Assembly (NCBI GenBank): GCA_973895155.1
Contig: OZ316891.1
Coordinates: 14,229,037-14,293,036, forward strand
DNA from: Marsupella aquatica
Taxonomy: Eukaryota > Plantae > Marchantiophyta
DNA length: 64,000 bases
Reading direction: 5' to 3'
The translations under genes were made by a program, and so were the position numbers. Below, in pieces: positions 12,923 through 54,699 of the stretch. The first letter of the stretch is position 1, and the number at the start of each line of letters is the position of its first letter. The notes below the pieces were generated by a model. The model saw only the letters and a program-made list of their open reading frames with translations, did no database searches and was not told the origin of the DNA.

Positions 12923-12939
12923 CACTAGAAGAAAACAGG

Positions 12940-13830: not shown

Positions 13831-13904
13831 AAAGAACCCAAGAGATATGAAGATTAAAATACTCAATAGTCATTCCAGACACCTATCATAATTGTAGAGT
13901 CATA

Positions 13905-27385: not shown

Positions 27386-27479
27386 ATAGGTTTTAGCTAG
27401 GTGTGTGAAGTCCATAGATGGACTACATGTATGGACTATTTATGAAATCAGACTAATGGTTTACCCATTTGTGCAGTTG

Positions 27480-30400: not shown

Positions 30401-30651
30401 GAGATTTGGTGAAGATGAAGAGCGTTGTGGACAATTCCATGATAGTGGCAGAAGGTGAGGTGACAGGGCTGCCAGGAGAAGATAAGTTTCATTGTGCAGA
30501 TTTTGAAAGCCCTTTCTTGCGAGTGCGTGTGATTGAAGTGTTTGTAGATGTGGCATTGCCATTTGCCAATTCAGGGGAGAACCAGTCTAAATTATCTGAT
30601 GTGAAAGGGATGAATTCCCTATGGAACTCTAGATTGCTTAAGAAGCAATAG
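27480..30651 (+). CDS. CACTA-1 second gene, TnpA-like (Transposase_24-like and Tnp1/En/Spm-like domains), multi-exon, probably with a stop at ~30124
   Basis: YEEARNQNIEHNVRIMRDLGL; PSGVDPKKWAALVSHF..RARVQDTSHFGRGG; C-terminal VAEGEV..FH..RVRVIEV..LPF..LW; many GT-AG junctions. Exon limits approximate. Confidence 0.75.
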
Positions 30652-30999
30652 AAATAGCACTCTATCAAGAAACAATAGACATGATAGAATGACAACTCTG
30701 TTTTTCTATAAACATGCAGAGTGATTGGTATGTCAGGTTGTAACAATTGACAATCTAATATTATTGATGTCAATGTAATTTTGTTTCATAAATTTGCATT
30801 GAGTTCAATATTTACCGTGAGACTTATGAAGGTATCTTGTATGAATATCAATTGGATTTGTGATATATATCGAATGTTTCTTTAAGTTTTCATTTAGCAA
30901 CTCTATTGAATGGCTTTGTAATATATGATTTTTGATTGACATCAAGTTTTATCTATCATGATCACTTAAATTTGAATTTCTCCAAATCATTGAATACTT

Positions 31000-31720
31000 C
31001 GTCTGAATGACTGGCTTGAATGACTAAATGACTGGCTAGAATGACTGATGTAATGGTCATTATTCACAACTATCTTTGTGACCAATATGACTCAACTCTG
31101 GTCATTAAAGACATAGACTAAATGATTCAAAGAATGACATATACAATGACCTTTCTCATGGTCATTATAAACAAGTCCACTATGACTCACTTTATGTCAT
31201 TCAAGACATGTCATTAATGACTAATGTGTATCTTTACGTGTCTTCTCCCAATTGAACCACGTGTCTCAATATGACTTGTTTATACTATAGTCATTTTGGA
31301 CACGTCCAAAATGACCCAAATATATTGCCAAATGGTGAATCCTCTTTGAACCACGTGTCACTATTTGATTTGTTATATAATGTACGTCATTTTGGACAAG
31401 TCCAAAATGACCAATGTTATTTGTTTTTTTATTGCCACGTGTCGTTGTGTGATTGGGTACGGGGACCATCGACGATCAACGGCAATTGACCGTCGATGGT
31501 GATTTGTGTCGTCATTTTGGACCGTTCAACATTTATGACCATATCATAAAAATGGTCATTTAGGATAGTATGAAATGACCACATGTTTTTAGCGTCATTT
31601 GTCCAAAAGGACCGTGACCAAAATGTCCGTTGTGACGTGTCTGGAAAGACGAGAACAATTGCGTCATTGTTTTGTTAAAAAGACCTGATTAATAGTCATT
31701 GTTTCGGTCATAAAATACAT
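31000..31720. repeat. CACTA-1 right subterminal repeats
   Basis: Dense atgac/gtcat motifs in both orientations before the right TIR. Confidence 0.85.
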
Positions 31721-31735
31721 TGTTTTCTACTAGTG

Positions 31736-34700: not shown

Positions 34701-35120
34701 TTGGATCCCAAGAGTCCTGGATCTTGGTGGTGCATATCTGAGGAACCCCATTGGCATTCGCAGGCTGAATGTAGAAAGCCATCCCAATGCGCGAGTTGTA
34801 CCCGGTGACCCGGAATGATTCTTTCAACTTCTTGATCGATGCACTTTCTTTCTATAAGGTTCAAACAACCTCCATGGGTAGCAATCTACACAGAGGAATT
34901 TGAGGTGGCTCCTTATTGAATCCTCAAAAATCCTTCCCGAACGACAATGCATGCTTTGATATTACCTCATCCATCGATAAGCCTATGTCACTGACTTCAC
35001 CCATGGAGACCTACTTCGGGTCCATTCTCCCTCTTCTCGACCTCGGGAAGGGCTGTGCAGATTCTGCTTTGGAAGTTGACAGGGACGCAGTCGATCGAGT
35101 GACGCAACGGGTGTATACTG
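31736..35120 (-). pseudogene. E1 ParB/Sulfiredoxin-like plus beta-class DNA amino-methyltransferase-like gene, multi-exon, with stops and a frameshift; continues at 12922-12653
   Basis: ParB-like segment R..DQEVER(I)KESFRVTGY..FCVFDGNHRLYSW (34459-34880); motif IV-like GVDAGFTYIPTG..VPKWN..EPFLADDGLLAI (32068-32901); RLPVGFMQTILELVTLPGDIVMDW leading into motif I. Motif IV precedes motif I, the beta order. Confidence 0.75.
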
Positions 35121-35563
35121 AACCAGCAAATAAAGACTAAGAGGACTTAGAATGACCACCATCAACCTCCCCCATTCTCGTATCACCCAGCCAAAAATTG
35201 CCGTGGAGAGCGACTCGACCACCCCGCACTATCGTACGCGCCGTGCAGTTCTTGTGATGATCACGTCTCAAAATGTACGGGACCAATAAAGGACGCACAT
35301 ACGCACTTGACAAACTTGTACAGTCCGAGGTATGAGCGCTTAGATGGACTAAATTATCTCCAACGAGCAATCTCAACCTCGTATTAAGACACCGATACAA
35401 TGGGCCCAGCCATTCGATATTCACGGCCCCAAGTACAGATGGCATTCTCCGATTGGACTTTCATCCCAGACAAAAGCAAAAAGGGTTCCGTGAACCTCAA
35501 TCTACAATAATATTACCGTTGTAAAGTGACCGTTGGAACCACAACAGTGTCGGTAGATCAAGA

Positions 35564-36901
35564 TAGCGCCAGGCGCTATTATACAACATACCTTCAAATG
35601 TATCGGAAAAAACGTCTTCATGTAGCTACAGGCATTGTTATCGATAATACTGTCTCTAAATTTTCAAATTTTGTGTTGGTGTCAACAAGCCAACTTTAGT
35701 AGCGCTCGGCGCTAGTATTCAAATAAATCATGAAATCAGAGTGCAATGACAACAAACATGAATGCATGAACCCATTCATTCAGAGAATATTCCAATAAAT
35801 TTTAATAGCGCCTGGAGCTATTAAAATGCACATCAATTGAACAAAATTTGTTCAAAGAAAAGTAAAACATAACTCCTAACGGGTCTATCTTGTGATTCCT
35901 TTAATTAATAGCGCCCAACGCTATAAAAAACAATTTAAAGATAAGACATGTCCCGACCGAGTTAAAGACACTTTGTTTCTCATAATAGCACCGAACGCTA
36001 CTAAAAACATTGGTAGCCAGCGAGTGTTTCCAACAATTTCAAAGAAATCGATCAGGTTCACATTCAGAATTACAATGCAAACACGAGAGTAGAATCGGAA
36101 ATTAAACCTTGGTATTCTGAATTCAAAAGCATTGACACCGATGTAAAAACGAACGGCTGTGCCATTCATATACAAAATGTTACACTACACTAGAAATCCG
36201 ACATACGATGAAGGAACGGTATGTGTTTCCTATCGGAAAAACACATGTGGAAACAGATCCTCCTTTGCCTTCCCTCGTGGAGGTGCCATTGAAAGTGAGG
36301 ACAAGGGACGAGGACAATAACAAGAAGCGAGGACAAGAATGCGAATGAGGACAAGAGCGCGAGTGAGGACAAGAATGAGAAACGAGGACAAGAATGAGAA
36401 TGAGAACGCGCCCGAAAGCAAAGTAGAACCACTGGGCCCGAAAGCGAGAACGAGAACCACGTGCCCGAAAGATGAGCCACAACTTTGCCTTAGTGAAGAA
36501 TGGCTCTACAATGAGGACATCGAAGGAGAACAACAAGATATAAGGAGAATTTGCACTTTGTCCCTGGTACCCACTTCAAAGAGGACCCTCGGACAGCACT
36601 TTCGGAGACGCATCCTTTCTGACATATTTGGACCCGGGCGGATCGGATTCGAGAAGATCCAATGGAGATCTTCAAGCGTGCCAACTTAATGACTCGTACT
36701 GTATCACATTATCGTACTTTTCTTTCCATTGAATGTTTTCAAGTCCATTGAAATAGGTAGCGCCAGGCGCTATTATTAATTTCCCTTGTACTCCTCACCC
36801 AAGAATGTTTGCACCCAAAGGTAGCGCCAGGCACTATTATTATTGGCCTACGTAGTCCTCACCCAAGAGTGTTTTACACCTTGAGGTAGCGCCAGGCGCT
36901 A
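35564..36901. promoter_or_regulatory. Cluster of eight 15-bp palindromes TAGCGCCNGGCGCTA between the divergent E1 genes (putative protein-binding sites)
   Basis: Copies at 35564, 35700, 35806, 35909, 35986, 36758, 36822 and 36887. A regulatory role is inference. Confidence 0.7.
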
Positions 36902-37040
36902 ATAACTAGGAACCCAAATCTTGCCGTTGGTAAGACGACAAAACATCATTGATGGAGTGCGTCCAAATCTATAACGACTCTATAGTGAGAATACAACGTT
37001 TACTTCTCATACTCGAATCTCATGATAAACATATTTCATT

Positions 37041-37975
37041 TTGTGTGGGGCAAAGGCATATCCCTCTTTTGAAGCCATGGCTCAAAATATTGTTGTCACG
37101 AGGAAGGACACTCGGGATGTAATCACAATCCCTGTCCTCGAATCATGTGAATCAAAGCGTGTTTTAGAGGAATATTTGGGAGTGAGATTTGATGTCGCCA
37201 AGGAGTCTATTTTAGCGATCTCGTTGGTGTTGGTTTGCTTGGGGGAGACTCTAGTTTTCAACGATGTTGTTCATGGTCAAAGATATTGGACTCTGGAGGC
37301 TCCAAGAGAATATGAGATTTTTGTTTTGAGAGATTTTGGGGCCTCCTCTACTCATCCTCCCACAGCGGCTAAACTCGATGTCATTGAACTCTCAGAAAGT
37401 TTTGGAGATGATAAGCAAGCGACAACTACTCTCAGAGAGAAGATTCCAGTTTACCCATCCGAGATTAAAAAGGAGTCTAATGCGGATCGAGAAAAGATCG
37501 TGCCTTTGACTATGTACCGGCAGAGTGCAATAGATACAATCTTGAAATCCAAAGGTCATAGTGAATTGTCTTGGTTTATAAGGGGGAGTGATTTTGTTCA
37601 TCACGTAGTGCCTAGTCTTCCCACATCTTACAATGGGAATGTGGTTTTTGAGTTACCCCCGGTAGACTGTGTGAACGCAAAAGGTGAACGTTTGAAAGAT
37701 ATGGATCGCGGTAAGGATTGTTATTATTGGACTCGGATTGTGAAAACATCTTCAAATGTTCTTCCGAAGAAAATGTGGGATTTCGGGAAAGTCCAGTGTA
37801 CGGGATCGTTGCAATGTCGAAATAATGCTTGTCCGTGGTGGAAAGACAACAAGTTTTGAAATAATGAGATGTGGGCAAGAACCCCAAAACTTTTGGGCCC
37901 ATTCCGAGTTGGGGAATTGATCTCCGAAGGTGGAGTTGTTTGTCACCATTGCTCCGAACCTCCGATGTGCGCCCT
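37041..37975 (+). pseudogene. Truncated N-terminus of a putative MULE-related transposase with a GCM/WRKY-like Zn module
   Basis: LPTSYNGNVVFELPP..MDRGKDCYYWTRIVKTSS..QCTGSLQCRNNACPW; after TGA 37857 the same frame gives NEMW..FRVGE..VCHHCSEPPMC and then loses coherence. The family call is from recalled similarity; no DDE core is in the window. Confidence 0.6.
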
Positions 37976-38950
37976 GGGCCCTTACTCTGTGTATATTAAT
38001 GGAACCGGCCTGTGAACGCCCCTCCCCTCCAAACCCCTTTAGTAGTATTTTTTGCCCTTTTAAAAAGCTCTTATTAGTATTAATAAATTACTTTTGGGTC
38101 ATTAAGAAAGCCCTTTAGGCTATTATAATCTTCATCAAAATGACATTAAATATGCTCTTCAGGTGTTATAAAAAATTATGTCAAAGAGATTCTAAGTCAA
38201 ACAGATTGGAATAAACATTTCACATTATCAAAAGCAAAAACAGGAACAACATATTCTTTATGTACACACTTCCTCGCAAGAAGGTAGGAGTCAAGGCATT
38301 TAAGAGTCAAACAAACTCATACAAGTATCCAAATTTAAGTTGTAAACATTTTACGCTGTCATCTATGAAAACCGTAAGTCCACATTGCACTTAAGTTTGT
38401 CCCATAGTTTGTTGAGCATATTCATCATCGTTTACAGGAAAGTTATCCTTTGAGTCTAAAGCATTGGAAAACTTATTACATTTAAACTAATTCTTTGATC
38501 ACTAGAAGTGATAAATATCCACCGAGGTACATAAGTGACTCTGGATTGAGACTCTCTATCACTTGTGGCATCATAGAATCCCCACCTGACGCAACATGCA
38601 TTGAACAATGGTGTCAACTTGACCTCCTCCTTCTTTGGGGGCCCTACAAGGCCATATATACCCCTACACCGTTTGATATAGAAACCCCAATTTAAGAAAA
38701 ACCGAACTTTGGAAATTCCGAAAATCACTAAATATTATTATTTTAATAAAAAGGGGGCGACATGACGCATGGCTGCGTGTGAAACCCTGAAAATGACTGC
38801 AACGTCACATTTTAACCAATCCAACTTGACGGGACCAAGAGACATGCTCACGCGAATAATAATAATAGAGAAATAAATCTTTGAGATCCTTTATATATGA
38901 TAACCAGTATATAAGGAGTTTACAAATGGTTTCTAGAACGACAATACAAA

Positions 38951-39680
38951 TTAATCTGATCTCATGCCGACTATTATTTTGGAAGCATCCAAAATTGGGC
39001 GTCTGTTAAATTGCTCTACTAGATATCTATCTCCATGCCTCTGAATCACAGGGTCTTCCCATAGAGTATGATTATAATCATAATCTCTAAAAATAGATTT
39101 AACTGACCAATCTGGATAATCTCTTCCATTGGCAATGACAAGCGGCTCACAAGAGTTTGCTAGCTTGCTAAGATACGGAATCAGCAAGTTAATCAGGAAA
39201 CTGTCGTCGACCGACCCAAAATATTTGGGCGGAAATAATGATCCAACAACAGGATCTAAACAAGCATGAAATGCATCGGATTCGATAAGCATTATGTTTT
39301 GCTGCAGATACGCCTTCGTATAAATTCCAACCTTCTCAAAACACTTCAAAAATATCCGCTTATTTGATGTCACCCCATCGCATAAGTAACAATGAGACTG
39401 ATCCCAAATATACTTAAATGAGGCCATTTCCATCGCAGTAAAAATAGATGCTAAAATCTGATCTAAAAGGTTCTTCCCAAGAGAGGACCAGATCCCTACA
39501 TCGAAATTCTCAAAACAGAATCTCAAGAATTCATGAAGATGAGGCCTTGGAAAAATGTATATATTCCCAATCCGAATTCCAGTTGAGACCGCCATCAGTC
39601 GGGAATGCGGTGCAGTGTAACAGAGTAGATGCTCCACGTCTAAAACTATGAGCCCGTTTTCTTTGCTGCAATGAATCTCC
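38951..39680 (-). CDS. FCP1/SCP-like (NIF) HAD phosphatase-like domain 3, degenerate
   Basis: GLIVLDVEHLL..IFPRPHLHEFLRFCFENFDVGIWSS..IWDQSHC..FLKCF..NIMLIES..DDSFL..LIPYL. Confidence 0.8.
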
Positions 39681-39765
39681 TATAGAGAAACACAAGAAGA
39701 TGCATGAGCCCGTATGGATGTAGTCACGCGAATGGTCGCGTCACATATTACAGAGAAAACATCCT

Positions 39766-40473
39766 CTACACTCTGGCCATTGATAAGTGACGTCTGTTGA
39801 AGTGCTTGATAAGAACTTGATCCGCATGTCTCTGCACGTACAGATGCTCCCATATATCCTCGTTCAGATCCCAATCTCGATGTAGATTTCTAATCAACCA
39901 GATGGGATAATCGAACTTGTTAGCGAATGCAAGACAAAGCCCTGAATTTGATAGCTTTCGTAAATATGGAATGAGGTCATCCCTCAAAAAGACATCATCC
40001 AACGATCCTTGAAATGACTTAGCGAACAATAATCCGCATACAGCTGTCTGGCATGTATGGGAAGGACAGGCATCAATCTGGATTATATTCTCTGGTCGAT
40101 AATCTTGAAACATATCACGTAGTCTCTCGATAGATTTGAAGACAACAGTCTTATAATTTTTCTTCACATAACCAAGATTCCAACAATGATCCCGTGTGAA
40201 CACATATATCAGCTGCGACAGGTCGGTGCTCGACAACACTTCTGAAAGTATCTGATAAACCAGTTTATCATCGAGAATAGACCAGACCATCACATCAAAA
40301 TGATCATAATAGAATTTTATAAGATCATGAAGATGCGGCCTCGGAATGACACATAGAGATCCGATACGAATTCCAGGTGCCGACTTGAGCTGAGGAGTAT
40401 ATTTTGAAACAGAGCACAAGAAGTTTTCCAGTCCTAAAACTAGAAGTTGACGCGACCTGCTCCACTTAGACAC
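39766..40473 (-). CDS. FCP1/SCP-like (NIF) HAD phosphatase-like domain 2, degenerate
   Basis: LLVLGLENFL..IPRPHLHDLIKF..FDVMVWS..VFKSI..ENIIQIDACP..DDVFLRDDLIPYL; no motif I aspartate. Confidence 0.8.
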   Translation of the reverse strand: MSKWSRSRQLLVLGLENFLCSVSKYTPQLKSAPGIRIGSLCVIPRPHLHDLIKFYYDHFDVMVWSILDDKLVYQILSEVLSSTDLSQLIYVFTRDHCWNLGYVKKNYKTVVFKSIERLRDMFQDYRPENIIQIDACPSHTCQTAVCGLLFAKSFQGSLDDVFLRDDLIPYLRKLSNSGLCLAFANKFDYPIWLIRNLHRDWDLNEDIWEHLYVQRHADQVLIKHFNRRHLSMARV

Positions 40474-40598
40474 CTGTAAATGAACAATTCGATTCTCATA
40501 TTATGCAATTGCAAACAACCACGCGACCGGGCGTGTCACTCCCAAAAGTTCAATTTCAATCAATTTATAAATAATAATTGATAATAAACAATAAACGT

Positions 40599-41506
40599 TT
40601 ACTTATTGGACTTATCCCGGGCTTCTATAGCATGGTCTTTTTTGGCAGATAAGTATTTCATAAATTTGTCAAACTTTTCTAAATGGTCTTTATTCCCCTG
40701 ATTACGAATGATCACGTTTCTCCTCCAAAGATTCGTCTTATCAATATAATCTTTCTCAAGATTTTCTTGAGAGAACGTTGGAATCCCATATCCACTAAGG
40801 AGCTCGCGGAATGTCAACTTGTCAATTGACATGTCGCATAGATATGGATATAGTTTCTTTCTAAAAAATAGGTCATCATCGAGCCCAAAATATGCATCGG
40901 GATACAGCGATGAATAAAAGTCATTAAGGCTCGTCTTATATGCAGCGTCATCGATAAGAATGACATTCTCGATGTTGTAATCTTTAATATCGGCGGCAAT
41001 GTCCGAGAGACATTTGACAAATATAGGGATGTCATTATTATTCTTCCCAATAAATCGAGTTGATTCTTGTCCCCATATAAATTTAATATGTTTCAAAACT
41101 TTGGGTCGAAGTATCAGCCTTACACAAGATAGAATATTCCGTTTGAACATGCACGACCAGATCGCAATGTCGTATAGATCTGCCACCTTCTCAAGAAATT
41201 CCATTAAATCAGGCCTTGGATAGATAACCTTGTGCATCTGTCTCACACCCCTTGACCGAATGGGCATCCCAGGGCTGATCTTATCTGACCAGATAAGTAC
41301 CCGATTCAGATCGAAAATTACAAGTCTCTTCTGAACCGGTGACTTCTTTGCCGATGGAATAGGCGCCATCTGTACCTGTGATTTTTGTGCCATAGGGTTT
41401 GGAGAACGTACTAGAACGGTCTGTTTGTTTCCCGCCTCCGGACGATCACCGGACTTCCGGACTGGTGCCTTCGATACTCGATCAGGGGGTTTCGGGATAG
41501 GCTTCT
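40599..41506 (-). CDS. FCP1/SCP-like (NIF) HAD phosphatase domain 1
   Basis: KRLVIFDLNRVL..IYPRPDLMEFLEKV..YDIAIWSC..FIWGQE..FVKCL..NVILIDDAAYKTSLN. Confidence 0.85.
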
Positions 41507-41633
41507 GTAAAACATTAAGAAATGAAAATAAGTTTATAACGCGAACGGTCGTGTGACTACAAAGAGAGACACTGAAATGAAGTGTATTACCTGTACAAGA
41601 CGGTCGTTCAGTGCTGGAATTCCGCCGGAAATG

Positions 41634-42380
41634 TCAATCATAGCAGATCCCGGTAACTAGGTTACTTGCGGACGTCGGCTTGCGGAAGTCCATGTCAAAT
41701 AACAACAAGACTATCTCCCTACGGAATTTCTTAATTTGATCTACGGCAAAATTAATTCCGTTTCCTTGACACAAGCACTTGGCGTATCTCAAGATAAACA
41801 CACCACAACTGTGGCCGTCACTCTGGTGAGGAATATCATTCCGATATATCCATTCCCAACCTGAGAGATCCAAGTTGACACCAGTTCTCCAGCCAATTTC
41901 GTCGGCGTAGTACTTCCCAACAATATCTAGCACCCCAGGATTTTGTCGATTATGAACTAGAGAATCTAGGTACTCCAGCCGTTTCTCCTTCGGATACAAG
42001 ACTACCAATGACCAATGTTCTTTCACAGCATTGTGTACTGGAAAGACCAGTTTCTCGTATTCACTGATTTTTAGCGGAAACTCCTTTGTCCAAGCTGCTC
42101 TCTCCTTGTCAAAAATGGTAGGATCCATGGAGAGAAGCTCAAAATGGTGTGTTTGGAAGAATTTGACAAGGTCTGACTTTCCAACTCTATCGAGAATCAG
42201 TTCGAGAAAACTCAAATAAGCGTTAATTATATCATCGGTGAGCAACTCGCGCGGTCTCAGACACATCATATGTTTCCTCTTGATCGAGTGTTGTAAGAAC
42301 TTGGTCAATAGCTCTTCCATATCCTTAGAAGGATCAAGGCATTGATCTATTCGACTAGCCAAATTTTCAAAAAACTGCAA
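41634..42380 (-). CDS. Ulp1/SENP-family (peptidase C48) SUMO-protease domain
   Basis: CLRPRELLTDDIINAYL; FPVHNAVKEHWSLVVL; LEYLDSL; IPHQSDGHSCGVFIL. The His-Asp-Cys triad and oxyanion Gln are present. Confidence 0.93.
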   Translation of the reverse strand: MQFFENLASRIDQCLDPSKDMEELLTKFLQHSIKRKHMMCLRPRELLTDDIINAYLSFLELILDRVGKSDLVKFFQTHHFELLSMDPTIFDKERAAWTKEFPLKISEYEKLVFPVHNAVKEHWSLVVLYPKEKRLEYLDSLVHNRQNPGVLDIVGKYYADEIGWRTGVNLDLSGWEWIYRNDIPHQSDGHSCGVFILRYAKCLCQGNGINFAVDQIKKFRREIVLLLFDMDFRKPTSASNLVTGICYD

Positions 42381-42508
42381 AAAATAGAGATTTCAGTAAG
42401 CCTTCAAATAACGTATTGAGGTTGTAGCCTAAGGGTTGTAGCCTCAGAAAATAGAAACAATAACAGATCAATAATAAAATAATGACGTCTATAATAGAAA
42501 CTTTAAGC

Positions 42509-44262
42509 TTATAGCTTGCGAATGACCTTTGGATTGGGTGGATCCGGCCATTTTGCAGCTGATCTCTTGGGTGCCTCAATCGCAACAACATCCTTCAGCC
42601 CTCCTCGAGACCGCAGTGATCGCTCCACCGGACCAGTTTGCGAAGGTTGGAGCGATGAGACGGGAAGACCTTCAAATGGTTGTGGCATTTGATTCAAATA
42701 TTCCACAATCTGGGAATCCGATTCCAAAATATCCGGTGCCACAATTTCTGCGCGAGTCACCTCTGCAATATATCGGGGTCGAGACCATGAACCCGGTCGC
42801 GTCAAGTCAGCTGTTAGTCTCTTAACGACTTGAGCCGAGTCTGGTGCCAAAAACGTTCCCAGGTCTTGCACTCGATTCACGGAAAAGCGGACATTATTGA
42901 TGATTGTCTCCATTCTGGATGCAGTGGCAGTCTTCTCCTCGGTAATCAAAAGACCCTTCCAATATTGCAAAGCAAGGACTGCCTGGACTCGGAGCTACTC
43001 CGGTGAATATTTATTCCAATCATCCAATGAGACCGTACTTAAGGGTGGATCGTTAAATTCAAACTCCGGGCGAAGAAAATAGTCTAATATTTTCTTCTTA
43101 ACTGCAACTGAGGGTGAAGAAGGCTTCTTCAAATTCAGCCTTATTTTCGGTAGACGTTGTGCCTCAGGAATAAGCGAAAGATCCTTGGCCCTCTCGGCCT
43201 CCTTCCTCGCTGCCTCCAGTCTTGCGGCTTCTTCTCTCTCCAGTCTTGCGGAATCCACCTTTTCCGCCTCCAACTTCTCCGCCTCCACCCTCTCCGGTCT
43301 TGCGGTCTCGTCCGCCATCCTCTCGGCCAGCAGCCTCTCAGCCGCCTCACTCTCCGCCTTGGCCCTATTTTCCTCTGTCACTAAAAGGACTCTCGCAGCC
43401 TCCGCTTTCTCCGCCTGGGCTTTCTCAGCCTGGGCTTTCTCCGCCTGGGCTTTCTGAGCCTGGGCTTTATGAGCCTGGGCTTTCTGAGCCTGGGCTTTCT
43501 GAGCCTAGGCTTTCTCGGCATCCGCTTTCTCCGCCTGGGCTTTCTCCGCCTGGGCTTTCTCCGCCTGGGCTTTTTGAGCCTGGGCTTTCTCAGCCTGGGC
43601 TTTCTCAGCCTCTGCTTTCTCCGCCTCGGCTTTCTCAGCCTCGACTTTCTCCTTCTTCTTCGCGACAGTTGCTTTTCTAGCTGCTGCCTTTTCTTCTTAA
43701 CCTCCTTCTTTTGAAGCTGCTCTTGTCGGGCCGCCTCTTGTCGGGATGCCTCCTCCTGCCGGGCCACCTCCTTCTTTTGAAGCTCCTCTTGCCGGGCTGC
43801 CTCCTGCCGGGCCGCTTCCTTCTTTTGAAGCTTCTCTTGCCGGGCCGCCTCCTGCCGGGCCTCCGCCAGCCTGGCCTCCTCCAGCCTGGCCTCCTCGTGC
43901 CGGGCCGCATCGTGCCGGGCCTCCTCCTACCGGGCCTCCTCCTGCCGGGCCGCCTCCTCTTGGTCCACCTCATGTCGAGGCTCCTGTGTGGCCTCTTCAT
44001 CAGAGTACTCAGCGTCCTCGGAACCCTCCATCTCCTCGTCCTCTTCATCAGCGTCCTCAGCGTCCTTCATCTCCTCTTCGTCACTCTCTTCATCTCCTCT
44101 ATTGTCGGAATCTCCGACGTCGTTCTGCGTATCGGTCATCCACTCTGGATCTTGGTCATTGACATCCCCATCCGCGTCACCTTCCGCGTCACCTTCCCCC
44201 TCACCATCCGCATCACCATTGCTCCCTGCATCCTCAACATTGAAGCCACAGTCGACTTGATC
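42509..44262 (-). pseudogene. Acidic and A/E/K/Q/R-rich coiled-coil linker exon of the E2 giant gene (15-bp repeats EAARQ and AEKAQ)
   Basis: D/E tract at 43990-44250, tandem EAARQ and AEKAQ units, in-frame TAG stops and a frameshift near 43690. Confidence 0.7.
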
Positions 44263-44378
44263 TGAATAAAATCAGATCATTTGATAAGAATGACTCACGC
44301 GTGAAAAGAAATGTTATGAATGTCCACGCGCATGTTCGCGTGACGCAATAAAAAGTAAGAGGTTTCAAAAGTAACTTA

Positions 44379-47300
44379 CCTTGGATTGGCCCACTAGGGT
44401 ACTCCGTTGGTCGAATGTATAATCGATCGGAATCTTCAGAGAGTGCATACTCTTGCAATAATTGATTACAAATATTATCAGGGATATGTTGTTCGTGGAG
44501 GACATCCAAAACATCAGCCCTGAGAGCAGTTACGGATGGACGGTACTTCATTAATTTATCTATACATTTTTCTATACTAGCCCGTACTGGGTCAATCAAT
44601 GACAGCGTTGTATCAATTATCGCCGTGGTGTGTTGCAAGAAACAAGACAACTCCCTATGCGTTGCCACAGGGCAGTAATATTTTACATTGGATCCAGCAT
44701 CCTGTAAAAAAAAGCCAAAATTAGTTCACAATATTAATTGAGAATATAATAATCTAAATAATCTTACAATCGAAACCCCAAAATATAAATAAAAAAACTT
44801 ACCATTAAGCACTAGATCAAGTTCGTTCCCTCACCGAAGCATATAGCCCATTCCCCACATTGGACGAATTGACTAATAATACTTTCAAAGAATGGAAGTA
44901 TCTTTTCTGGGGAAGGTGTCGTGAACTCGCCGCTCTCTTCAAAATTGGCTATCTTCTCAATCTGATATTTGGAGACCAATTGGAACTCGAGGGCTTGTGG
45001 ATCGCCCATTGTGCTGAAGGCCAAGCTGTGAAAAGCGTAGGTTACAATAAGCTTCTTCTCCTTCGGCCTCTTCTGAATATAATGGCTATCGACAGCAACG
45101 TAGTGTGTGTACTTCCCTAATTCCCGTTTGATTAAGTAAGACTCAACGGGAGAGGCTACAATAATAACCACATGGTGTGGTTTTGCCCCTATCTCGCTAG
45201 TAGCACGAAATAACCCCTCATAGAATGAGCAATTTGGCGGACGCAAATCTCCCATTGATGAGGGATCAAAATAAATCAAGCTCGCAAGGTTCTTGTCTTC
45301 ACGTATGATACAGTCTGCAAACCCAGCATTTTGTATATCCTGCAGGGATCGCAATTTCAGCCTCTCACCGACCGGCCGCACTAGTTGGTTTCCTTGACTA
45401 TCAACTGATTTCTGTATTTCTTCCACCAACCTGTAGAATATAGGGTCAATCTCCTTCAACAAATTATCATTACTAATATTTACATTTAAGCACTTCTTCA
45501 GATAACCACTCAACGCATCTCTCAACTGCTTCAGCACCATCTTGTCGAGCTTAAAGCGATCAATCATTCCTTTGACCCGCAATTTCCGTGCTGAATCTGT
45601 CAGACTTTTCAGCTCCATCCGGGTGGATGTTTCCCCGTTGAGTTTACTCAATAATAAAATCTCAAACTCAACTTTCGTCTTCTTCTTTATACAGAATTGC
45701 TCCAAACTCATGCTGGTCGTTGACAACACTGGAGCCTCAGAGGACTTCCTCGCCTTACCAGATTTTACTTTGATGCTTCGGTTTTTGAGTATAGACAGTC
45801 TTTCGCTCAACATATATTCCGCTGCCTTTCGAAGAACCGAGTCTGAGCACCCTTGACAAGAACGGAACGTCTTCTTCAGAAGATGATAAGCACAAGGATT
45901 ATCCGCAATTTTGACGGCATCCCTCTGTAAAATTCCGTTGTAAATTACAAGCTCTCCTATCCTTGATAGTTCGTAGACCTCCATCCACTTCTTGAATGTT
46001 TCGTCCTCCATTGTAAAGAGAAACGGAGCCAATTCTCCAAATTTCATCATTTCGTTCTTCCCCATTTGAGCCCATGGGCAGACAAAACTCGTAGCTCTCA
46101 TAAATACCTGAAAAACAATGGAAACATGACAATTCTAAGCTTGACGCGACCGTTTGCGTGACAAAAGTTTATACGATAATGTGATCGAAGAGGGTTATTT
46201 ATATACCTTCCAATTTGGATGACGATAATGTGATCCAGGCCGCCCAAATGAGTTCCAGATATTACGACACTGTCGTACAATGGTCAAAAATTGTCCTTCT
46301 TCCATTGATGTTTGATGACAGTGGTTCAGAGCTTTCGATAATCCCATCAAATGAACATTATTGTCGTTGTTGAGCGTTGCCCAAAACATTACAGCTTCTA
46401 CAGTACCGCAAGCATCTCGTACAACTTGGCTAACTTTGTCGTCCTCTCTCAGCAATTTGTACGCCATTATTGTGTGCTGGCCTCCGAGTATCCAGAAATG
46501 ACTGGTCAAATGTCCTCCTCCTTTGGCGATGAATCGTAGGGCGTCCCATTGTAGTCGGGATCTCTGTCGGCCTCCGACTGAACCCACTTCACAGGGACTA
46601 AAAAGCAGCATCGCTTCTCGAACTTTATAGTCGAATGAGAGAGGAGTGAATTCTTTAGCCTATGTGTAATCCTGATTCCACTCTCGGCACTTGATGTGGT
46701 CCGGTGCAAGATGACAACGTGATGTCTCAACAAAAAATGACTTGCTATTAAATATATTCACAGCACTATATTCTTTGAGGAAAGAATCGAACAGAGCCCC
46801 GACATTCGCTGAGGTAATTACTTTTGGAAGATTCTTCGCAGAGTATACTTCAACCTTGCTCACTGGCGGGGCCTTTCCCAAGCAAAATCCCTGGTTGAAA
46901 GGAACTCTCTGGAACTCAAGTACGTCAATAATGTATTGACAAATCAAATCTCCCGTTGATGCCTCTGGATCGGAAGGATATCCCACACTAGTAACCTTTT
47001 CCAAGGCGTGCCTTGCACCTAGAAGATCATCGATTCTGGGCTGATTGAAGGTTACATATTGCGTTCGATCCAAACAAATGCTTATTTTGTCTTCCTGCTG
47101 GTCGTCGCTAACTAGCAGAACCAATCCCTTTGTACACTCTTTAACTTTCATGTTCTTCTCAAAGAAACACTCGAGAATTTTTGATCTCTCCAAAACTGTA
47201 GCTTTATCATTTCTTGCCACCACAAGACGGACAGCCCCATTGCGAACGACTATTCCAAAATCGGATATCTCAGTCGATTCAAAGAGATGGATACTCTTTG

Positions 47301-47442
47301 TCTCCATTGTTCTCTCTCTGATTGACTTTCCTTGATATGCAAGTATGGATGTCTCCGCGGGAGTCATTTTTGTCTTGGTTTTCTTTCGAGAAGCAGCTTT
47401 AGACGAGTCTCTTTTCCGCTTTGAGGTTCCGGTAGGATCCAT
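44379..47442 (-). pseudogene. E2 ParB-like plus degenerate DNA methyltransferase-like region, multi-exon
   Basis: CREWNQDY..RLKNSLL..CFLVPVK..HFWILGGQHTIMA (ParB/DGQHR-like); ASLIYFDP (motif IV-like); EKILPFFESIISQFVQCGEWAICFGEGT (resembles EKP..L...I.....GD.VLDPF.GSG). Candidate GT-AG introns ~46200-46110 and ~44802-44703. Confidence 0.6.
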
Positions 47443-47517
47443 TCTGAAATAGACAAATATTGAAAGTTAAACGTTTATTATAAAATACTAACACGCGCAT
47501 GGTCACGTTGTGCCGAA

Positions 47518-48048
47518 TTACATTTTAGGAATGTTTATCCTGACCCAATCTTCTCGCTCATCTTCATCTAACCAAAACCAAAGGTTCCTAAACGTGTCAA
47601 GTTCAGATCCTTCAAATCCACCCAGAATGTCTAGCGGCGGGAGAGTTCTGATGGATTCTGTAAATCTGAATGCTACACTCCATGAAGTCAAATGCCTTTG
47701 AAGCGATTCATATCCTGGTCTATCAGTGAAGTCGTAAGCTACCAAGGTGACCGTCGCCCAAGTACTACTATAAGTAACTATGTGGCACCACTTCTTACTG
47801 ACTATTCGAATGGCGATCAAGTCCATGACCCGATTTTTAATCGCAGTATCCGACAAATTCCCAAGACAGTGGAAAAACTCTTTGACTAATGGCCAAATAT
47901 ATTTCTCGACAATATCGTCCGAAAGACCGGGTATCAGGTCTTCAGCTTGACTCCATATCATGTTTCGGTTCAGAACCTTTGCACGTGCAATGCGCTCCAT
48001 CATCATTTGACGATGAGATTTTCGATTCATGTCAAAGGACTGCAGCAT
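47518..48048 (-). CDS. F-box-like protein or exon, copy 1
   Basis: LIPGLSDDIVEKYIWPLV..LIAIRIVSKKWCHIVT..W. Confidence 0.65.
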   Translation of the reverse strand: MLQSFDMNRKSHRQMMMERIARAKVLNRNMIWSQAEDLIPGLSDDIVEKYIWPLVKEFFHCLGNLSDTAIKNRVMDLIAIRIVSKKWCHIVTYSSTWATVTLVAYDFTDRPGYESLQRHLTSWSVAFRFTESIRTLPPLDILGGFEGSELDTFRNLWFWLDEDEREDWVRINIPKM

Positions 48049-48125
48049 AATATGGAAAAGATTAAGAACAAGAACCTATCCATTAAGAACTGGGACCACC
48101 GAGATTCTGAGAAAATCTACCAAAC

Positions 48126-48649
48126 CTTTTGATTAGGACATCTCGTTCTTCCTCATCTAAATTGTTATATTTGTTCGTAAACAATGCGATTTTGTCAGAA
48201 GTAGTAGTCCCAAGAACAGATATTTCTGGAAGCATAGAAATATCCTGTCGAATAACTCAATAGACTGAGTCAAACTCCAACTCGTCAGTTTCGGGTATGT
48301 TGTAAAGAGCATCATTTGCGACATCGACAATCCGGTTTGCTTGTTTGAGGATAGCCCATAACCTTGTATTTGTAACTAAAAATTTCCACTTCTTGCTACA
48401 AGCTCCAAACTGAATAAGGTCTCGGACCCTATCGATAACCAAATCGTTATCGAGGTGTCGATATCCACGCAATCTTTCAATTGAAATAAAGTGTTTGTAG
48501 AGTATTGGCCAAATGTTTGAAATGACCAAAACATCTGGTATTCCTCCAATGAGACTAGAGGAGGTTTCATCCAGCGTATCCCATATTGTTTTCTGTTTCT
48601 TTTCATGAGATGAAAGGAAATCTCGAGCCTCATTCAAAAGTTGGCTCAT
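48126..48649 (-). pseudogene. F-box-like paralogue, copy 2 (internal TGA at 48257)
   Basis: LIGGIPDVLVISNIWPIL..FGACSKKWKFLVT..W. Read-through gives ISMLPEISVLG..LDEEERD, which matches the copy 1 tail IRTLPPLDILG..LDEDERED. Confidence 0.62.
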
Positions 48650-48714
48650 CCTGCTTTTATCATATCACAAAACATTGTTAGAAGACATACGACGCGCTTG
48701 GTCACATAAGTTAA

Positions 48715-49278
48715 CTAGAATTCCTTAAAAGTGTAGATGTCACCCTCAAGGTATCCAACTTCGTGGCATCTGACTGTAAATTTCCATTTTTCAAGAGGGT
48801 GAAGAGCATCGTAAGTCTTCGCGAAGAGTTCCCTAAGATCTCTGGACATTGACCCCATGAATTTAATTCTTGGGTATTTCTGGAAGAAACTTTGAATTGT
48901 CGATGAGAGAGACTCATTTCCGATCGGTTTAGTAGGATTTCCAGGGAAAGCCAAATCTAATAAACTCAACTTGATTACACCCAGAAGATAGGTATTCCCA
49001 ACAAGGTGGCGCCATCTGCAACACACCGAAGATAGTCCTACAAACTCATCCAATTCCTTTATTGAGAAATTTCCTGCATTAGCCGAGGAATTAAAAGTCT
49101 CCTTGATCCGAGGCCATATCAATTCCACGACAATGAAATCTGGAAGTCCAGGTAGTAGTGTTTCAACAAATACAAAATATCCCGCCAGCAGACCATCTTG
49201 GCTTCTGTCCAAAACGTCAAATATTGGGCATAGATATCTGAAGCTCTCCAGACCAGGTTCACCCATGACTCTTTTCAA
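48715..49278 (-). CDS. F-box-like paralogue, copy 3
   Basis: LLPGLPDFIVVELIWPRI..LSSVCCRWRHLVG. Confidence 0.65.
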   Translation of the reverse strand: MKRVMGEPGLESFRYLCPIFDVLDRSQDGLLAGYFVFVETLLPGLPDFIVVELIWPRIKETFNSSANAGNFSIKELDEFVGLSSVCCRWRHLVGNTYLLGVIKLSLLDLAFPGNPTKPIGNESLSSTIQSFFQKYPRIKFMGSMSRDLRELFAKTYDALHPLEKWKFTVRCHEVGYLEGDIYTFKEF

Positions 49279-49299
49279 CCAAATGATATATCCCAGAGA

Positions 49300-49805
49300 T
49301 TATTTTCACGCGACTGGTCGCGTCTACAAATCAGAATGCATAAACAATTCTTTGAGAGACTGATTTTTTCGGGTCACAACGTGAAATCATAAATGTTGCT
49401 TCGTCCTCTAACAGAACCAGTCAATGAGAGAGCAACCTCAGACGTGACTGGTCGCGTCAACTGAACCTAAACAACTATATCCACTGAACCTTCTGTGGAG
49501 ATTTGGATATGATACGCGCTCAGTAAATCTATCCAGTTTTCTTCTCACACGCGACTGGTCGCGTCAACTGGTCCTAAAAAGAACCTTACCTCCTCTAACA
49601 GAACCAGTCAATGAGAGAGCAACCTCAAACGCGACTGGTCGCGTCAACTGAACCTAAACAACTATATCCATTGAACCTTCTGTGGAGATTTGGATATGGT
49701 ACGCGCTCAGTAAATCTATCCAGTTTCCTTCTCACACGCGACTGGTCACGTCAACTGGTCCTAAAAGGAACCTCACAGTATTTTCACGCGACTGGTCGCA
49801 TCAAC
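49300..49805. repeat. ~187-bp tandem duplication region carrying six ACGCGACTGGTCGCGT palindromes
   Basis: cctctaacagaacc at 49405 and 49592; palindromes at 49308, 49442, 49549, 49629, 49736 and 49786. Confidence 0.88.
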
Positions 49806-52349
49806 AGCTCAAACAACTTTTGGACAATTGGATAATACAGTGATACAACTGTGATTACTGACCCGTACGGACAAGGAAATCCGAGTAAGCATGATTTCAT
49901 TCATTTGTATTCATTCATTTGTATTCATTCATGAACTTTACAATAATTCAGATGTTTGAGCTCTGTCATTGTGAAACTATTATATATTAGAAGTTTAGAG
50001 AATGATCCAGCTAAGATGATTCAATTTAGCAGTCTACTGGTTGTATTCGTCAATTAAAGGATTCAGTGTAATGAGATTCACATAACATGAGAGTTTATAT
50101 GATTAAATTCACAGCGTGCAAGTTTGTAATGACTTACTTAAGACGATTCAGGTTGTATTTTAATTAGTGAGTTTGTATGATTCACACATATTTGAGTTTA
50201 CAAACAAACCGCATTATGAAAACTGTGCTTAACAATCAAGAGAAATTTTAGCAAACCACAATCAACACCAGGTGAAAATGTAGAAATTACACCTGAATTC
50301 TGAAAAATTGATGTAATCGTCTGAGAGATTGACGTCCAAGCACTTGAACACCTTGCTGCGGCATTCCAGAAAGTAAATATAAGATTGAAGATATTAATAT
50401 GCTAAGCAACAACAACACAGCTTCTATACTTCTATACATAGATCTTCGCTGCCACCAATTGAATAACATGTGCTTAATGCTAAGGAGCTCATTATGTCGA
50501 GTTAAAAAGACTCTTTGAGAAGTCTTTGAGTGGATAGGCAAATTGAGCATGAATAAAAGCGCACTAAACCTGAAGATTCAAAGAGGTGAAACAAACCTGA
50601 ATGCTGAATGGAAGGAGCTAAAACAAGCTGCCAAAAAGTAGTTTGAGCTGCTGAAACACGTTGATCGAGCTGATATGAGCTTAAAATTGGCTGACACGAG
50701 CTGATACAAGCACTCCTAAAAAGCTAGCTGCAACGAACTAGCAAACTAGAAGTGAATACGAGCTGTAAATGCGAGCTGCAATGCACCAACGAGCTCCTGG
50801 TCGAAACGATGGACAACTACTAAGAGCTGCAATGCGCCGACAAGCACCTGACCACAACGAACGAGCTGCAACGACAAAAATGAAATCCAGGGCAGGAGCG
50901 AGAGCGACGAGAGCAGGCGCGCAAAAGTCTAGGGAGCAAGAAACAACAACAATGAACAATGAACTCGAGACCGTGGGCGCCGACACTAAGGAAGGACTAA
51001 TTAGGGTATTGTTTTAGCATAACCCTAATAACAGCCTAGCGACAGGAAGGTTCCAGATGATCTCCGTACACTCCACCATCGACTGAACAAACTATGCAAT
51101 CGTGAAAAAAAGATTACCGGATTCCTTTTGATTTTTCGTACTAAAGGAGATTTCTATTTGATGGCCAATTTGAAATTTAAACCGGTAATTATGCAACTGC
51201 GAAAGATTGTTAGTGGGGACCCCCGGATCCGGATCCGGATCCGTATCTTCACTATATCTGCCAATTCAAATCCAAAATGTGAACGAACGACAACTTTCTC
51301 ACGATCGTTCCATCACGTAGTGGAGGCAAACTTCAAAATCATTCCATTTTGGTAGTGGAGACCGTCGGATCCGGATCCGTACTCCACTCTCTATCTTGCC
51401 AATTCAAACCCTTACTCTAAACAACGTAAAATGATTCTCACGGTCAGGGAGAACCGATATTCAAAATCAATCCTGTACAATGATTCTCACGACTGGAGAC
51501 TCAACCAATTTTCAAAATCAAAATCGAGTCCAGATGAACACATCCTCCATGGAGTCAATAGACTGATCTCATTGCTCACGGATCATTCTTCATTTTCAGT
51601 TTCTCCTGACTAGGATACTAGCTGGGCTCTCAGCGGAGGCTGATCCAAGGCACATTTGAGGTGGAGCAGATTGGATCATTCGACTATTCCAGTCGGAGGC
51701 GGAGCTCATTCAAGCAACGTTGGCGCAGTTCTTGTTGTATCACCTTCAATCTTGGGGAGAGCACATTCGATCAAGCGGGAGAGTTGCGACGAAGCGAGAC
51801 GACAAACATTTAGAACCTCCATAGTCTGCCTCATTCATCGAAGCATTCTAGCGGACCAACAAAGAGCGGCTATTCTGAAATCACAGTTTGGTCGAGGATT
51901 TTGATCTTGATACGATCAACAAGTTGTCATTCTCTGGTGGTGGGATTTGATCACGATACTCAAGGAAATTGGAGTTCGAAGGAGGAGGCTTAGTTGGCTG
52001 GGACGAGGAGGGTACGCTGGAAGGAAGAGGCTTGGCTGGGAGGAGGGTTTCCGCCAACATCGGAGGGTTGCCGCCAACATTGCTGAGACCACACGCAACT
52101 GAATAACTTGTAAGTATCAATCAGCATTAATTCCACAATAAATGAGGAGAGTAGTTGCCTTAAATCACGCATTCAATGCATGAATTGAGTCAATGAAGTT
52201 ATGATCCAATTTCTCACTCCGATTTTGATCAATCCGTGTTTCAAGTCCAATACAGAAGCAATGTATCAGAAGTACTAGTAGAGGATCCGAATGAATTCTC
52301 TAGTCTAAAATTGTATGGCGTACGCGTATAGTTGTTCGTACATTTTGCT

Positions 52350-53300
52350 ATTATTTATTGTAGTCGACGGCCTAGCAAAACGAAACGTAATCGAGGTCCA
52401 TTTTTCAGATCTTCCTGATCTCAACTTGTTAGTAGGATGACCTATTTTTTGGTTACACATGCAGTTCGTCACGCGCACAGTCGCGTGAACCAATTTATCT
52501 CGTGTCTTTTGATATTGTTTATTGTAGTCGACAGCCTAGCAAATTGGCCAGACATCTATTTTAAAACCAATGTCTTCGTTTCATCATGCGCACGGTTGCG
52601 TTAATGTTGTAGAGGTCAGCGAAAGTTCTGCACTCTTAGACGTAATCGCCCTTTATTTCAGAGATCTTCCTGATCTCAACTTGTTAGTAGGATGACCTGT
52701 TTTTTGGTTACACATGTAGTTCGTCACGCGCACAGTTGCATGAACCAATTTATCTCGTGTCTTTTGATAATGTTTATTGTAGTCGAAAGCCCAGAGAATT
52801 GGCCAGAAATCTATTTTGAAACCGAGTTCTGATTCACGCGACCGGTCACGTTAATATTTTAGAGGTCAGCGAAAGCTCTGCACTCTTAGACGTAATCGCC
52901 CTTTATTTCTCAGATCTTTCTGATCTCAACTTGTTAGTAGGATGACCTGTTTTTTGGGTTACACATGTAGTTCATCACGCGCACAGTCGCGTGAACCAAT
53001 TTATCTTGATATTGTTTATTGTAGTCGACTGCCCAACGAATTGGCCAGAAATATATTTTAAAACCGAGGTCTTCGTTTCATCACGCGCCCGGTCGCGTTA
53101 ATGTTTTAGAGGTCAGCAAAAGCTTTGCACTCTTAGACGTAATCGCCCTTTATTTCTCAGATCTGCCTGATCTCAACTTGTTAGTAGGATGACCTGTTTT
53201 TGGTTACACATGTAGTTCATCACGCGCACAGTCGCGTGAACCAATTTATCTCAGGTCTTTTTGATATTGTTTATTGTAGTCGACAGCCTAGCGAATTGTC
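52350..53300. repeat. About four ~250-bp tandem units carrying seven ACGCG-N6-CGCGT-type palindromes
   Basis: gatctcaacttgttagtaggatgacct at ~52417, 52672, 52922 and 53168; palindromes at 52471, 52586, 52726, 52836, 52977, 53083 and 53222. Confidence 0.9.
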
Positions 53301-53500
53301 AGTCAGAGGAATCTCGATTTTTCCTTGATTGCAAAAATGGTTACATCGATCCCAAAGGACTTCGGATATGGAATCCATATCCACTAGCACTATCCAGGAA
53401 TTTAAGCTACACAGTATCTATAACAAGTTCTAACTTGAACTACTCTTGAATCTGTAGTTCTAATCTTCGACTACTCAAAATATTGTTGACTTCGATCGAG

Positions 53501-54043
53501 TCAGTCATTCCAAGATGAAGGCATCCACTCATCGGTGTCTGGTGTGGATTCCCTTGAATCCATAAATTCTTCCTTTGCCCAAGTCCTAACGTCCATAGAT
53601 TTTCTCGGCTTGCTCTTTCTATAATACAAATTAGAATCTTTGTTCATCTCTAATTGCCTTTTCTTCGGTGCGTCCACTTTCTTGGCCTCCTTCTTGACTG
53701 TCTTAGCGTCTGCTGCTGCTTCCCCCGAAATGGATTCGACGCATGCTCTGACCTTCAACTTCTCCCCCCTCGAAACGGATTCCACGAGGGCTTTGCCCTT
53801 TAACTTCTCCCCTGATGCCATCTTTGTAGTCATCTCTGTCGGATTGGTCTCCATCTGATCTTCCATCGACAAATGTGGCAAACAATGTCGTCTCTTACAA
53901 AACATTTGACCCGATTTAGTCACCATAAACATTATATTACATCGCTGACACATTCTGTAAGGAGTACCATGAATTCGATACGTCCAACCTTCTGAATCAT
54001 CCGTCGAAACATCCTCATTCTTTGAGCTCAGCGGAGTAGTCAT
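53501..54043 (-). CDS. Hypothetical 180-aa protein with a small Cys/His cluster
   Basis: Open ATG-started frame; YRMCQRCNIMFMVTKSGQMFCKRRHC; internal repeat SGEKLKGKALVESVS/RGEKLKVRACVESIS. Confidence 0.45.
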   Translation of the reverse strand: MTTPLSSKNEDVSTDDSEGWTYRIHGTPYRMCQRCNIMFMVTKSGQMFCKRRHCLPHLSMEDQMETNPTEMTTKMASGEKLKGKALVESVSRGEKLKVRACVESISGEAAADAKTVKKEAKKVDAPKKRQLEMNKDSNLYYRKSKPRKSMDVRTWAKEEFMDSRESTPDTDEWMPSSWND

Positions 54044-54699
54044 CGCCCTTCAAACAAGAGATGCTGACCGAGACTAAGAATTGGAAATGAGAGAGCTGAT
54101 GTGCGAATAGATTATCCAGTAGCCAGAAAGTGGAATGCGTGGGGGAATGAGCAATAGAGATCATCTCAATGCTTTATACTGTTTAGTCTCCACTAGTCAT
54201 TGTACATAGTGGTTTCTAGAAGAGGGTGCGCGTTTGACTGGCGCGTATTAGAATTGGCGGGAAGTTCAGTTGTCCTCTAATTATGACTTTAATTTCACGT
54301 TTGGCGACCGCCCCGGGAATACTGATTGCTAGTGAAGTACTGAGATTTCTTATGAAGGTCAATAGTTACTGACTGTCCGGTGTCCACTCATTGGTAAACT
54401 GGTACTGTCCACTCATTTTTCCTGAGTGGAGTTGAAATGATTTTTCGTAATCGATTGTAGTCATTCTCATTCACTTGAAATGACTGACGGACCATGCATT
54501 ATCTTTACCAGTATGTGTGATGCCTTTAGATCCGTAATTGTATCTTCCTGTCTCGCGCGCAATCGTATCTTACTTATGAAGTACCAATTACGAGCTAGAG
54601 TTTGGGCCTAGCCTTCTAGCTTCTACGTCGTAGACCCTGTACCCTCTGACTAAGGTCACGCGACATGCCTTTAGATCCGTACACTAGTACATTTTCGGG

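Follow-up and report, generated by a model that had tools for sequence, protein, structure and literature searches.

Sequence-specific self-protection of transposons has been demonstrated for VANC and TnpA, whereas a ParB-like version has only been proposed, in red algae. VANC motifs lie in introns and upstream DNA, all point the same way and are gained through tandem duplication (PMC5735166), and TnpA of Spm binds terminal clusters of family-specific, CpG-containing motifs and lowers methylation (10.64898/2026.08.24.746577). In the red-algal Plavaka (EnSpm) elements of Bostrychia, a ParB-like gene, PAG3, stands beside inverted-repeat arrays, self-binding being put forward as a proposal only (10.1101/2025.02.11.637652). 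ParB recognizes 16-bp palindromes and spreads over 10-20 kb, its relative VirB acts as an anti-silencer by way of a clamp (PMC10770331), and DUF3723 is a conserved accessory gene of fungal Starships, of unknown function (PMC9156397). Here we describe a 64,000-nucleotide stretch of the liverwort Marsupella aquatica (assembly GCA_973895155.1, contig OZ316891.1, positions 14,229,037 to 14,293,036 of the forward strand), hereafter the window, in which two adjacent elements, E1 and E2, each carry their own palindrome and a ParB-like open reading frame (ORF), beside CACTA elements that are depleted in CpG and serve as internal controls. We take "E2" to be the label of a first-pass annotation for an element; judged by its sequence, the region is not a cluster of ubiquitin E2 genes, and no ubiquitin-conjugating domain appeared in 30 ORFs scanned with Pfam.

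We consider it very probable that the E2 palindrome is a site for a protein encoded by the element, and we lean slightly toward the ParB-like protein as its binder. The fuller proposal strikes us as evenly balanced: a dimeric E2-encoded protein, most likely the ParB-like one, would recognize the palindrome as its family-specific site, load at sites across the element and help to keep it active. By analogy, the purpose may be anti-silencing, likely as VANC does it, a suggestion that we make tentatively.

The palindrome, ACGCG-N6-CGCGT, occurs at 21 sites between 39726 and 53237, as 8 dispersed sites and 13 in two clusters, often in a longer version (TCACGCG...CGCGTGA), and the 6-bp spacing between the inverted halves is invariant in 21/21. 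This two-fold symmetric motif is confined to E2 and concentrated in the two internal clusters, 11 of the 13 clustered sites being inside tandem arrays (187-bp x2 and 255-bp x3.6); the dispersed sites recur every 0.8-1.8 kb across the element. The 16-mer of the first-pass annotation has 15 matches in the window at ≤3 mismatches, against a mean of 0.01 after shuffling (0/100 shuffles). A weight matrix trained on the 13 clustered copies only and scanned over the 64 kb returned, as its best six non-training matches, the intronic sites at 39726, 46144, 41539, 44326, 40521 and 47493, followed by a coding site at 42787, then 31649 (outside E2) and then 48692; it gave 7 matches of ≥9 bits in 38.9-49.3 kb versus 0.09 in Markov controls. 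Motif density is far above background, one of the two points on which the first-pass annotation had let its reading depend. The sites are as follows.

39726-39741, no strand (intron on the minus strand): palindrome in intron J (39680-39771), found by consensus scan and weight matrix
40521-40536, no strand: palindrome in intron I (40474-40602), whose donor and acceptor phases are mismatched in this copy
41539-41554, no strand: palindrome in intron H (41505-41590), found by consensus scan and weight matrix
42787-42802, no strand: degenerate palindrome in coding sequence, right half intact
44295-44304, no strand: truncated second palindrome of intron F, completed by 10 extra bases in other copies (X1, X2, X5)
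44326-44341, no strand: palindrome in intron F (44262-44379), found by weight matrix
44702-44802, minus strand: intron E, palindrome-free, 79% AT; similarity to homolog P0002 stops at the same donor
46144-46159, no strand: palindrome in intron D (46108-46206), with C at 46155 in most other copies, nearer the consensus
47493-47508, no strand: palindrome in intron C (47444-47521), found by weight matrix
48692-48707, no strand: weak palindrome (weight matrix 8.8 bits) in A, an intron or spacer at 48651-48715
49308-49801, no strand: cluster of 6 palindromes, 4 of which lie in a 187-bp x2 tandem repeat (49404-49773)
52471-53237, no strand: cluster of 7 palindromes, all in a 255-bp x3.6 tandem array (52400-53298)

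Seven of the dispersed sites had been listed by the first-pass annotation, each in a different AT-rich intron or spacer, and all seven were recovered where it had placed them; in order of position they differ from its 16-mer at 2, 2, 2, 4, 2, 4 and 5 positions and from ACGCG-N6-CGCGT at 0, 1, 1, 0, 1, 1 and 2. They fall in separate GT-AG intervals on the minus strand, eight of which, 65-129 bp long, we take as introns, splicing being inferred from the GT-AG signals and from where homologs end. The motif-bearing intervals are 55-68% AT, and 7/8 intervals hold one motif each. The annotation's picture of one palindrome per intron or spacer through most of the gene cluster holds for 7/9 non-coding gaps, the two without a motif being intron E and the gap at ~42375-42508, and fails for the 13/21 sites that lie outside its coordinates, in clusters. 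Its remark that no full copy lies in coding sequence overlooked the degenerate copy at 42787, which with 4 mismatches scores 14.3 bits, above 48692; a half-site also lies in an exon at 40450. Of the dispersed sites, 7/8 fall within the 10.5% of the sequence that is non-coding (p ~1e-6), a conservative figure because the non-coding fraction included a stretch later recognised as coding.

Apart from the motif, the introns are dissimilar, as the first-pass annotation had held: with motifs and splice signals masked, 0/28 intron pairs align above shuffles, which is not the homology along the whole intron expected of an introner or a miniature inverted-repeat transposable element, and across introns the 25-bp flanks are 29-30% identical versus 74% within the motif. 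The motif sits mid-intron, 34-64 nt upstream of the acceptor. Intron D is old: all aligned homologs extending that far (11/11), with identities as low as 27%, lose similarity at the same donor. Read by eye, introns C and J join their exons in frame, the intron A junction gives a stop and the exons around intron I do not match in phase here; some predicted introns may therefore be spacers, or this copy may be damaged there.

How the sites came to be spaced in this way involves duplication to a greater extent than had been claimed. The first-pass annotation had suggested selection for spaced binding sites rather than tandem amplification, and the second half of that statement is not supported: most sites are in tandem arrays, and intron units as well as exon units are duplicated. 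In other copies of E2, recovered from public runs, the second palindrome at 44297 is complete (X1, X2, X5), a motif-bearing 35-bp unit of intron D is duplicated (X1, X2, X4) and so, in one contig of X1, is a motif-bearing unit of 40 bp in intron C. At 46155, C accounts for 8808/10331 of the depth in X1, 434/575 in X2 and 6437/6959 in X4, and a diverged subfamily has A to C at motif position 6 of intron D, a position that is free among the 21 sites. The NIF-like and F-box-like exon units of E2 are themselves tandem duplicates. The first half of the statement fares better: protein identity among the NIF units is only 21-36%, a motif-bearing intron precedes every one of them, and the retention of the motif before exons so diverged points to selection. 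Exon duplication may have carried the sites along, yet they have outlasted all other intron similarity.

There are two rival explanations that we do not find convincing. The palindromes could be neutral residue, as footprints of tiny mobile or intron-creating elements or as by-products of exon duplication without function. The duplicated NIF and F-box units are what such an origin would leave, but no intron homology extends beyond 16-20 bp, the motif lies in the middle of introns and not at their ends, and a motif rich in CpG would be expected to erode more quickly than the sequence around it instead of outlasting it, in introns of which at least one is old; we regard this explanation as very unlikely. 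We give equally little credence to a hairpin, whether in RNA, aiding the splicing of short introns, or in DNA, as a hairpin or cruciform. The distance to the acceptor and the consistent polarity of the motif would suit it. Against it, on the transcribed strand the substitutions in the 21 sites turn 8 pairs into G-U and 9 into mismatches, none of them compensated, which suggests that sequence rather than pairing is kept; furthermore, 10 sites lack the sixth pair because C faces T, 13 sites are in non-intronic clusters and intron E is motif-free.

The neighbouring element shows a like arrangement. E1 has been split by a CACTA transposon and occupies the following intervals.

11900-12922, minus strand: continuation of E1 past the CACTA insertion, with the rest of a methyltransferase S-adenosylmethionine (SAM)-binding motif and 2 E1 palindromes
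12923-31735, plus strand: CACTA transposon inserted in E1, 18.8 kb, CpG-depleted, with a 3-bp target duplication (TGT)
31736-37971, no strand: main part of E1, with 12 copies of TAGCGCCnGGCGCTA, 4 in three introns and 8 upstream, and with methyltransferase-like exons

Its palindrome, TAGCGCCnGGCGCTA, is present in 14 copies versus 0.57 expected, at 12052-12130 and 32038-36901, part of them in a 64-bp tandem repeat of E1. No copy lies in E2, and none of the 19 matches to the E2 motif at ≤4 mismatches lies in E1. The first-pass annotation had missed this second element with its own palindrome, and it had named no binding partner for the first. CAMTA-, NAC- and E2F-like factors are candidate readers of CGCG/CACG half-sites, and a host transcription factor that recognizes such half-sites when unmethylated, as in an intronic enhancer, would account for their CpG-rich composition and for their intronic and upstream placement. 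We nevertheless find a host factor unlikely: the 6-bp spacing is fixed, the motif is missing from the other elements in the 64 kb, and a different palindrome takes the same positions in E1, which fits family-specific rather than host-wide recognition. The elements also differ in CpG content, the observed/expected counts at codon junctions being 92/107.6 (0.86) in E2, 23/45.1 (0.51) in E1, 9/52.5 (0.17) in the first CACTA element and 9/23.1 (0.39) in the second.

E2 and its recognizable coding regions are as follows.

37972-54681, no strand: inferred extent of E2, its left end cutting an E1 ORF and its right side abutting a CACTA end at 54682
38951-41504, minus strand: three NIF/FCP1-like phosphatase domains (Pfam E values 5e-15, 6e-11 and 9e-12), none with DxDxT
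41634-42392, minus strand: Ulp1/C48 SUMO-protease domain (Pfam E value 3e-19), with His, Gln and Cys motifs present
42509-44261, minus strand: acidic and 5-residue-repeat region, frameshifted
44803-46107, minus strand: helical region and alpha/beta region, methyltransferase likeness not supported
46207-47443, minus strand: ParB/DUF3723-like exon that contains GGQHT and whose reading frame is shifted in this copy
47522-49299, minus strand: three F-box-like exon units (F-box E values 0.005 and 0.01, below the cut-off), with 23-33% identity between units

Since DxDxT is missing from all three NIF-like domains, these are likely pseudo-phosphatases. A 182-residue ORF at 53501-54049 (minus strand), with a CxxC...C..HC pattern and no family match, lies beside the 255-bp array. 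A methyltransferase domain was considered for E2 and not supported (-1.4 bits, with 21/200 shuffles as high, and nothing above 0.81 in the ESM Atlas); the exon at 44.8-46.1 kb gave 263 pattern matches in a metagenome scan, none of which was confirmed. The scanned E2 ORFs contained no Pfam match to a MuDR transposase (VANA) or a VANC protein, neither E2 nor E1 ORFs matched a Pfam 2-oxoglutarate (2OG) oxygenase or SET domain, and Rfam returned nothing in 30-56 kb.

Word-index protein searches each yielded a single homolog, P0002 or P0003, of which P0003 is an intact homolog of the ParB-like exon. In the ESM Atlas, where scores ranged over 0.92-0.96, residues 225-410 of P0003 adjoin DUF3723 clusters (0.95, 179-183 shared features) and lie near a ParB_N cluster (0.92; 125 shared, a low number, and 35% of members annotated), and Pfam ParBc_2 matches the window's piece at a sub-threshold E value of 0.069. 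Among 1.84 billion representatives there are 24 relatives of the exon, and the 15 rows that cover the domain, once aligned, conserve CHLAP..KCR, GGQHT and a downstream Asn. Pfam PF12520 (DUF3723) gave no match, and tblastn returned nothing with P0003 against phages or with P0027 against plasmids. On balance we judge that the domain probably has a ParB/Srx-type fold. In E1, an ORF at 34459-34851 is ParB-like as well and has DGNHR, which fits GxxR (DGQHR E value 0.088; PHROG ParB-like E value 0.066).

Several observations pull against a ParB-like dimer that loads on these sites and protects E2. The CTP-binding motif of ParB CTPases is the GxxR arginine, and the E2 family has Thr there, with GGQHT or DGQHS in 9/9 rows covering the motif. 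A profile of the 15 sequences found no ParB among PDB sequences, 1/15 homologs touches a ParB PHROG (E value 0.099), both AlphaFold models are unusable (predicted local distance difference test [pLDDT] 37 and 34), the helical region after the domain is predicted only at pLDDT <60, with no helix-turn-helix demonstrated, and the E2-family profile, run against 816 ORFs of the window, misses the E1 domain, further direct comparisons of the two domains being negative too. The sites themselves are not perfectly what a symmetric protein would call for: their spacer is polar, with T at position 11 in 20/21 and A at the mirror position in 11/21, which a symmetric dimer does not require and which is not fully explained. 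Of 17 arm substitutions, 16 are C>T or G>A at CpG, so the sites of this copy look methylated at some time. The comparison of motif with flank that the first-pass annotation had suggested was made for one intron, D, among copies and is not positive by count: 3/16 motif positions vary versus 11/83 other intron positions, which also speaks for the neutral explanation. The high CpG content of E2 could reflect recent arrival instead of protection, and other E2 ORFs, such as the Cys/His ORF at 53501-54049, could be the binder.

This last point leads to the strongest rival, in which another E2-encoded protein binds, be it that ORF or a transposase or TnpA/VANC-like protein encoded outside the window, and the ParB-like domain is a bystander. 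VANC and TnpA do bind family-specific clustered motifs without a ParB domain, as far as the accessible text of both papers goes (PMC5735166; 10.64898/2026.08.24.746577); the E2 transposase is not in the window, and the polar spacer resembles the same-orientation motifs of VANC. On the other hand, TnpA sites are terminal, whereas here 1754 bp separate the inferred left end from the first full site and the clusters lie in the interior; VANC and TnpA motifs are described as 9-10 bp and non-palindromic; and in each of the two adjacent elements a palindrome of 15-16 bp accompanies a ParB-like ORF. We consider a different E2-encoded binder rather unlikely, though less so than a host factor, and retain the ParB-like protein as the favoured candidate.

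E2 spans at least 16.7 kb within the window and is a family of many copies, as indicated by thousands of contigs at identities from <90 to >99%. Contigs of four public runs cover 35.5-55 kb in all 30 bins, 5942 matching contigs coming from X1 and 3352 from X2, while X5 and X6 contribute small shares only. Because some contigs begin at 37972-37976 and others diverge after 37971, the start of E2 is likely at 37972, within an E1 gene. The first 35 bp (37972-38006) are at high depth in run X6 (organism D), which suggests a terminus common to different species. No inverted partner of this end was seen within the window, and inspection by eye showed no Helitron-type ends (hairpin and CTRR). A Pfam scan of the E2 ORFs showed no transposase between 37972 and 54681; the rest of E2 may lie beyond the window. 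The present copy is broken, with a 2-base loss at 46662 relative to other copies and further frameshifts and stops. Premature stops at 44812-44814, 48257-48259 and 48715-48717 are consistent with C-to-T change; the first is Gln in P0002, and at the second other copies differ at 48259.

The ORF of E1 that is interrupted at 37971/37972 (37029-37971) has a Cys/Trp pattern, which we take to be GCM-like, and no Pfam match; it is probably the front of the E1 transposase gene. E1 also carries a beta-class amino-methyltransferase SAM-binding motif I (21.9 bits, 0/200 shuffles, against a profile built from 42 enzymes of viral contigs and E. coli), and PF01555 matches one flank at an E value of 0.24; the CACTA insertion splits this motif. 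A methylase-like gene for N4C or N6A borne by an element may bear on the origin of enzymes like Marchantia DN4MT1. The CACTA cargo is of chromatin type, with NSD-like PHD fingers and a SET domain (22096-22767 and 60237-60896), and the first CACTA element has 83-bp and ~577-bp tandem arrays with 50-bp palindromes at 13200-18000 and GTCATTTTGGAC-type palindromes near its right end, at 31290-31411.

Our current working model is that a ParB-type dimer would bind each site and spread along the DNA from sites ~1 kb apart, and that the attached SUMO-protease, F-box-like and phosphatase-like domains would act on host chromatin or silencing proteins. Introns would offer a place where a site can sit without disturbing a long coding sequence, and the sites would have spread through local tandem and exon-unit duplication and then been kept while their flanks diverged. 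A wider reading, which we regard as doubtful and offer as speculation, is that plant transposon families turned the bacterial ParB-type clamp into a means of self-recognition: each family would have its own palindrome and matching protein, with intronic loading sites from which the clamp coats a 15-20-kb element, and SUMO-protease, F-box, pseudo-phosphatase and amino-methyltransferase domains would protect it from host methylation, E1 and E2 being orthogonal pairs. If true, eukaryotes would have a ParB-like clamp, the retention of CpGs by some giant plant elements would have an explanation, and the sites and proteins would form orthogonal pairs. Since the two pairs are adjacent, the claim of specificity is directly testable by a swap that combines either protein with either site.

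In their accessible portions, PMC4738411 and 10.1101/2021.02.12.428880 do not describe the E2 element, and a literature search, from whose reach most subscription papers and the bioRxiv supplements (with the Bostrychia repeat sequences) were excluded, found no land-plant transposon described as combining a ParB-like gene with palindromes in its introns. Among the closest known systems, Plavaka is likewise a giant element of 17-19 kb with a ParB-like gene, adjacent inverted-repeat arrays and an N6-methylase accessory gene, as in E1. It differs in that E2 sites also occur singly in introns, that two adjacent families have different palindromes, that the host is a plant, and that F-box-like, Ulp1 and NIF-like domains, in place of a 2OG oxygenase, are in line with the ParB-like exon; no Plavaka transposase is seen in 37972-54681, and one inferred E2 end lies in the window. 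Nor is the Plavaka PAG cassette (ParB with 2OG oxygenase, methylase with SET) reproduced here, E1 having a methylase motif and E2 scoring none.

VANDAL elements, like E2, reportedly carry a Ulp1-type protease, in their case VANB. As far as VANC is described in the accessible text, E2 shares with it a family-specific motif in introns and upstream DNA, in the same orientation and tandem-duplicated, whereas VANC motifs are 9-bp non-palindromes in dense arrays and E2 has about one palindrome per intron, with no similarity to VANC or to a MuDR transposase found among the scanned E2 ORFs. With TnpA of Spm it would share a self-encoded protein and family-specific CpG-containing motifs, but the sites and the hypomethylation of Spm are terminal and the sites of E2 internal. 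ParB-parS and VirB-virS offer 16-bp palindromic clustered sites, a domain of 10-20 kb and, for VirB, a clamp that counters silencing; in E2 the ParB fold and the helix-turn-helix are at most putative, the CTP-motif arginine is Thr, there is no ParA, and the gene is eukaryotic and contains introns. DUF3723 of Starships is the nearest named family by language-model features and an accessory gene of giant elements, with the differences that E2 gave no PF12520 match, that no tyrosine recombinase was seen, and that the accessible text of PMC9156397 does not contain the word ParB. E2 therefore resembles VANC in layout and ParB-parS in site shape and is not assigned to either, since VANDAL genes were not found and the GxxR arginine is replaced. 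To these systems the window adds two adjacent elements with orthogonal palindromes and a contrast in CpG content with their neighbours.

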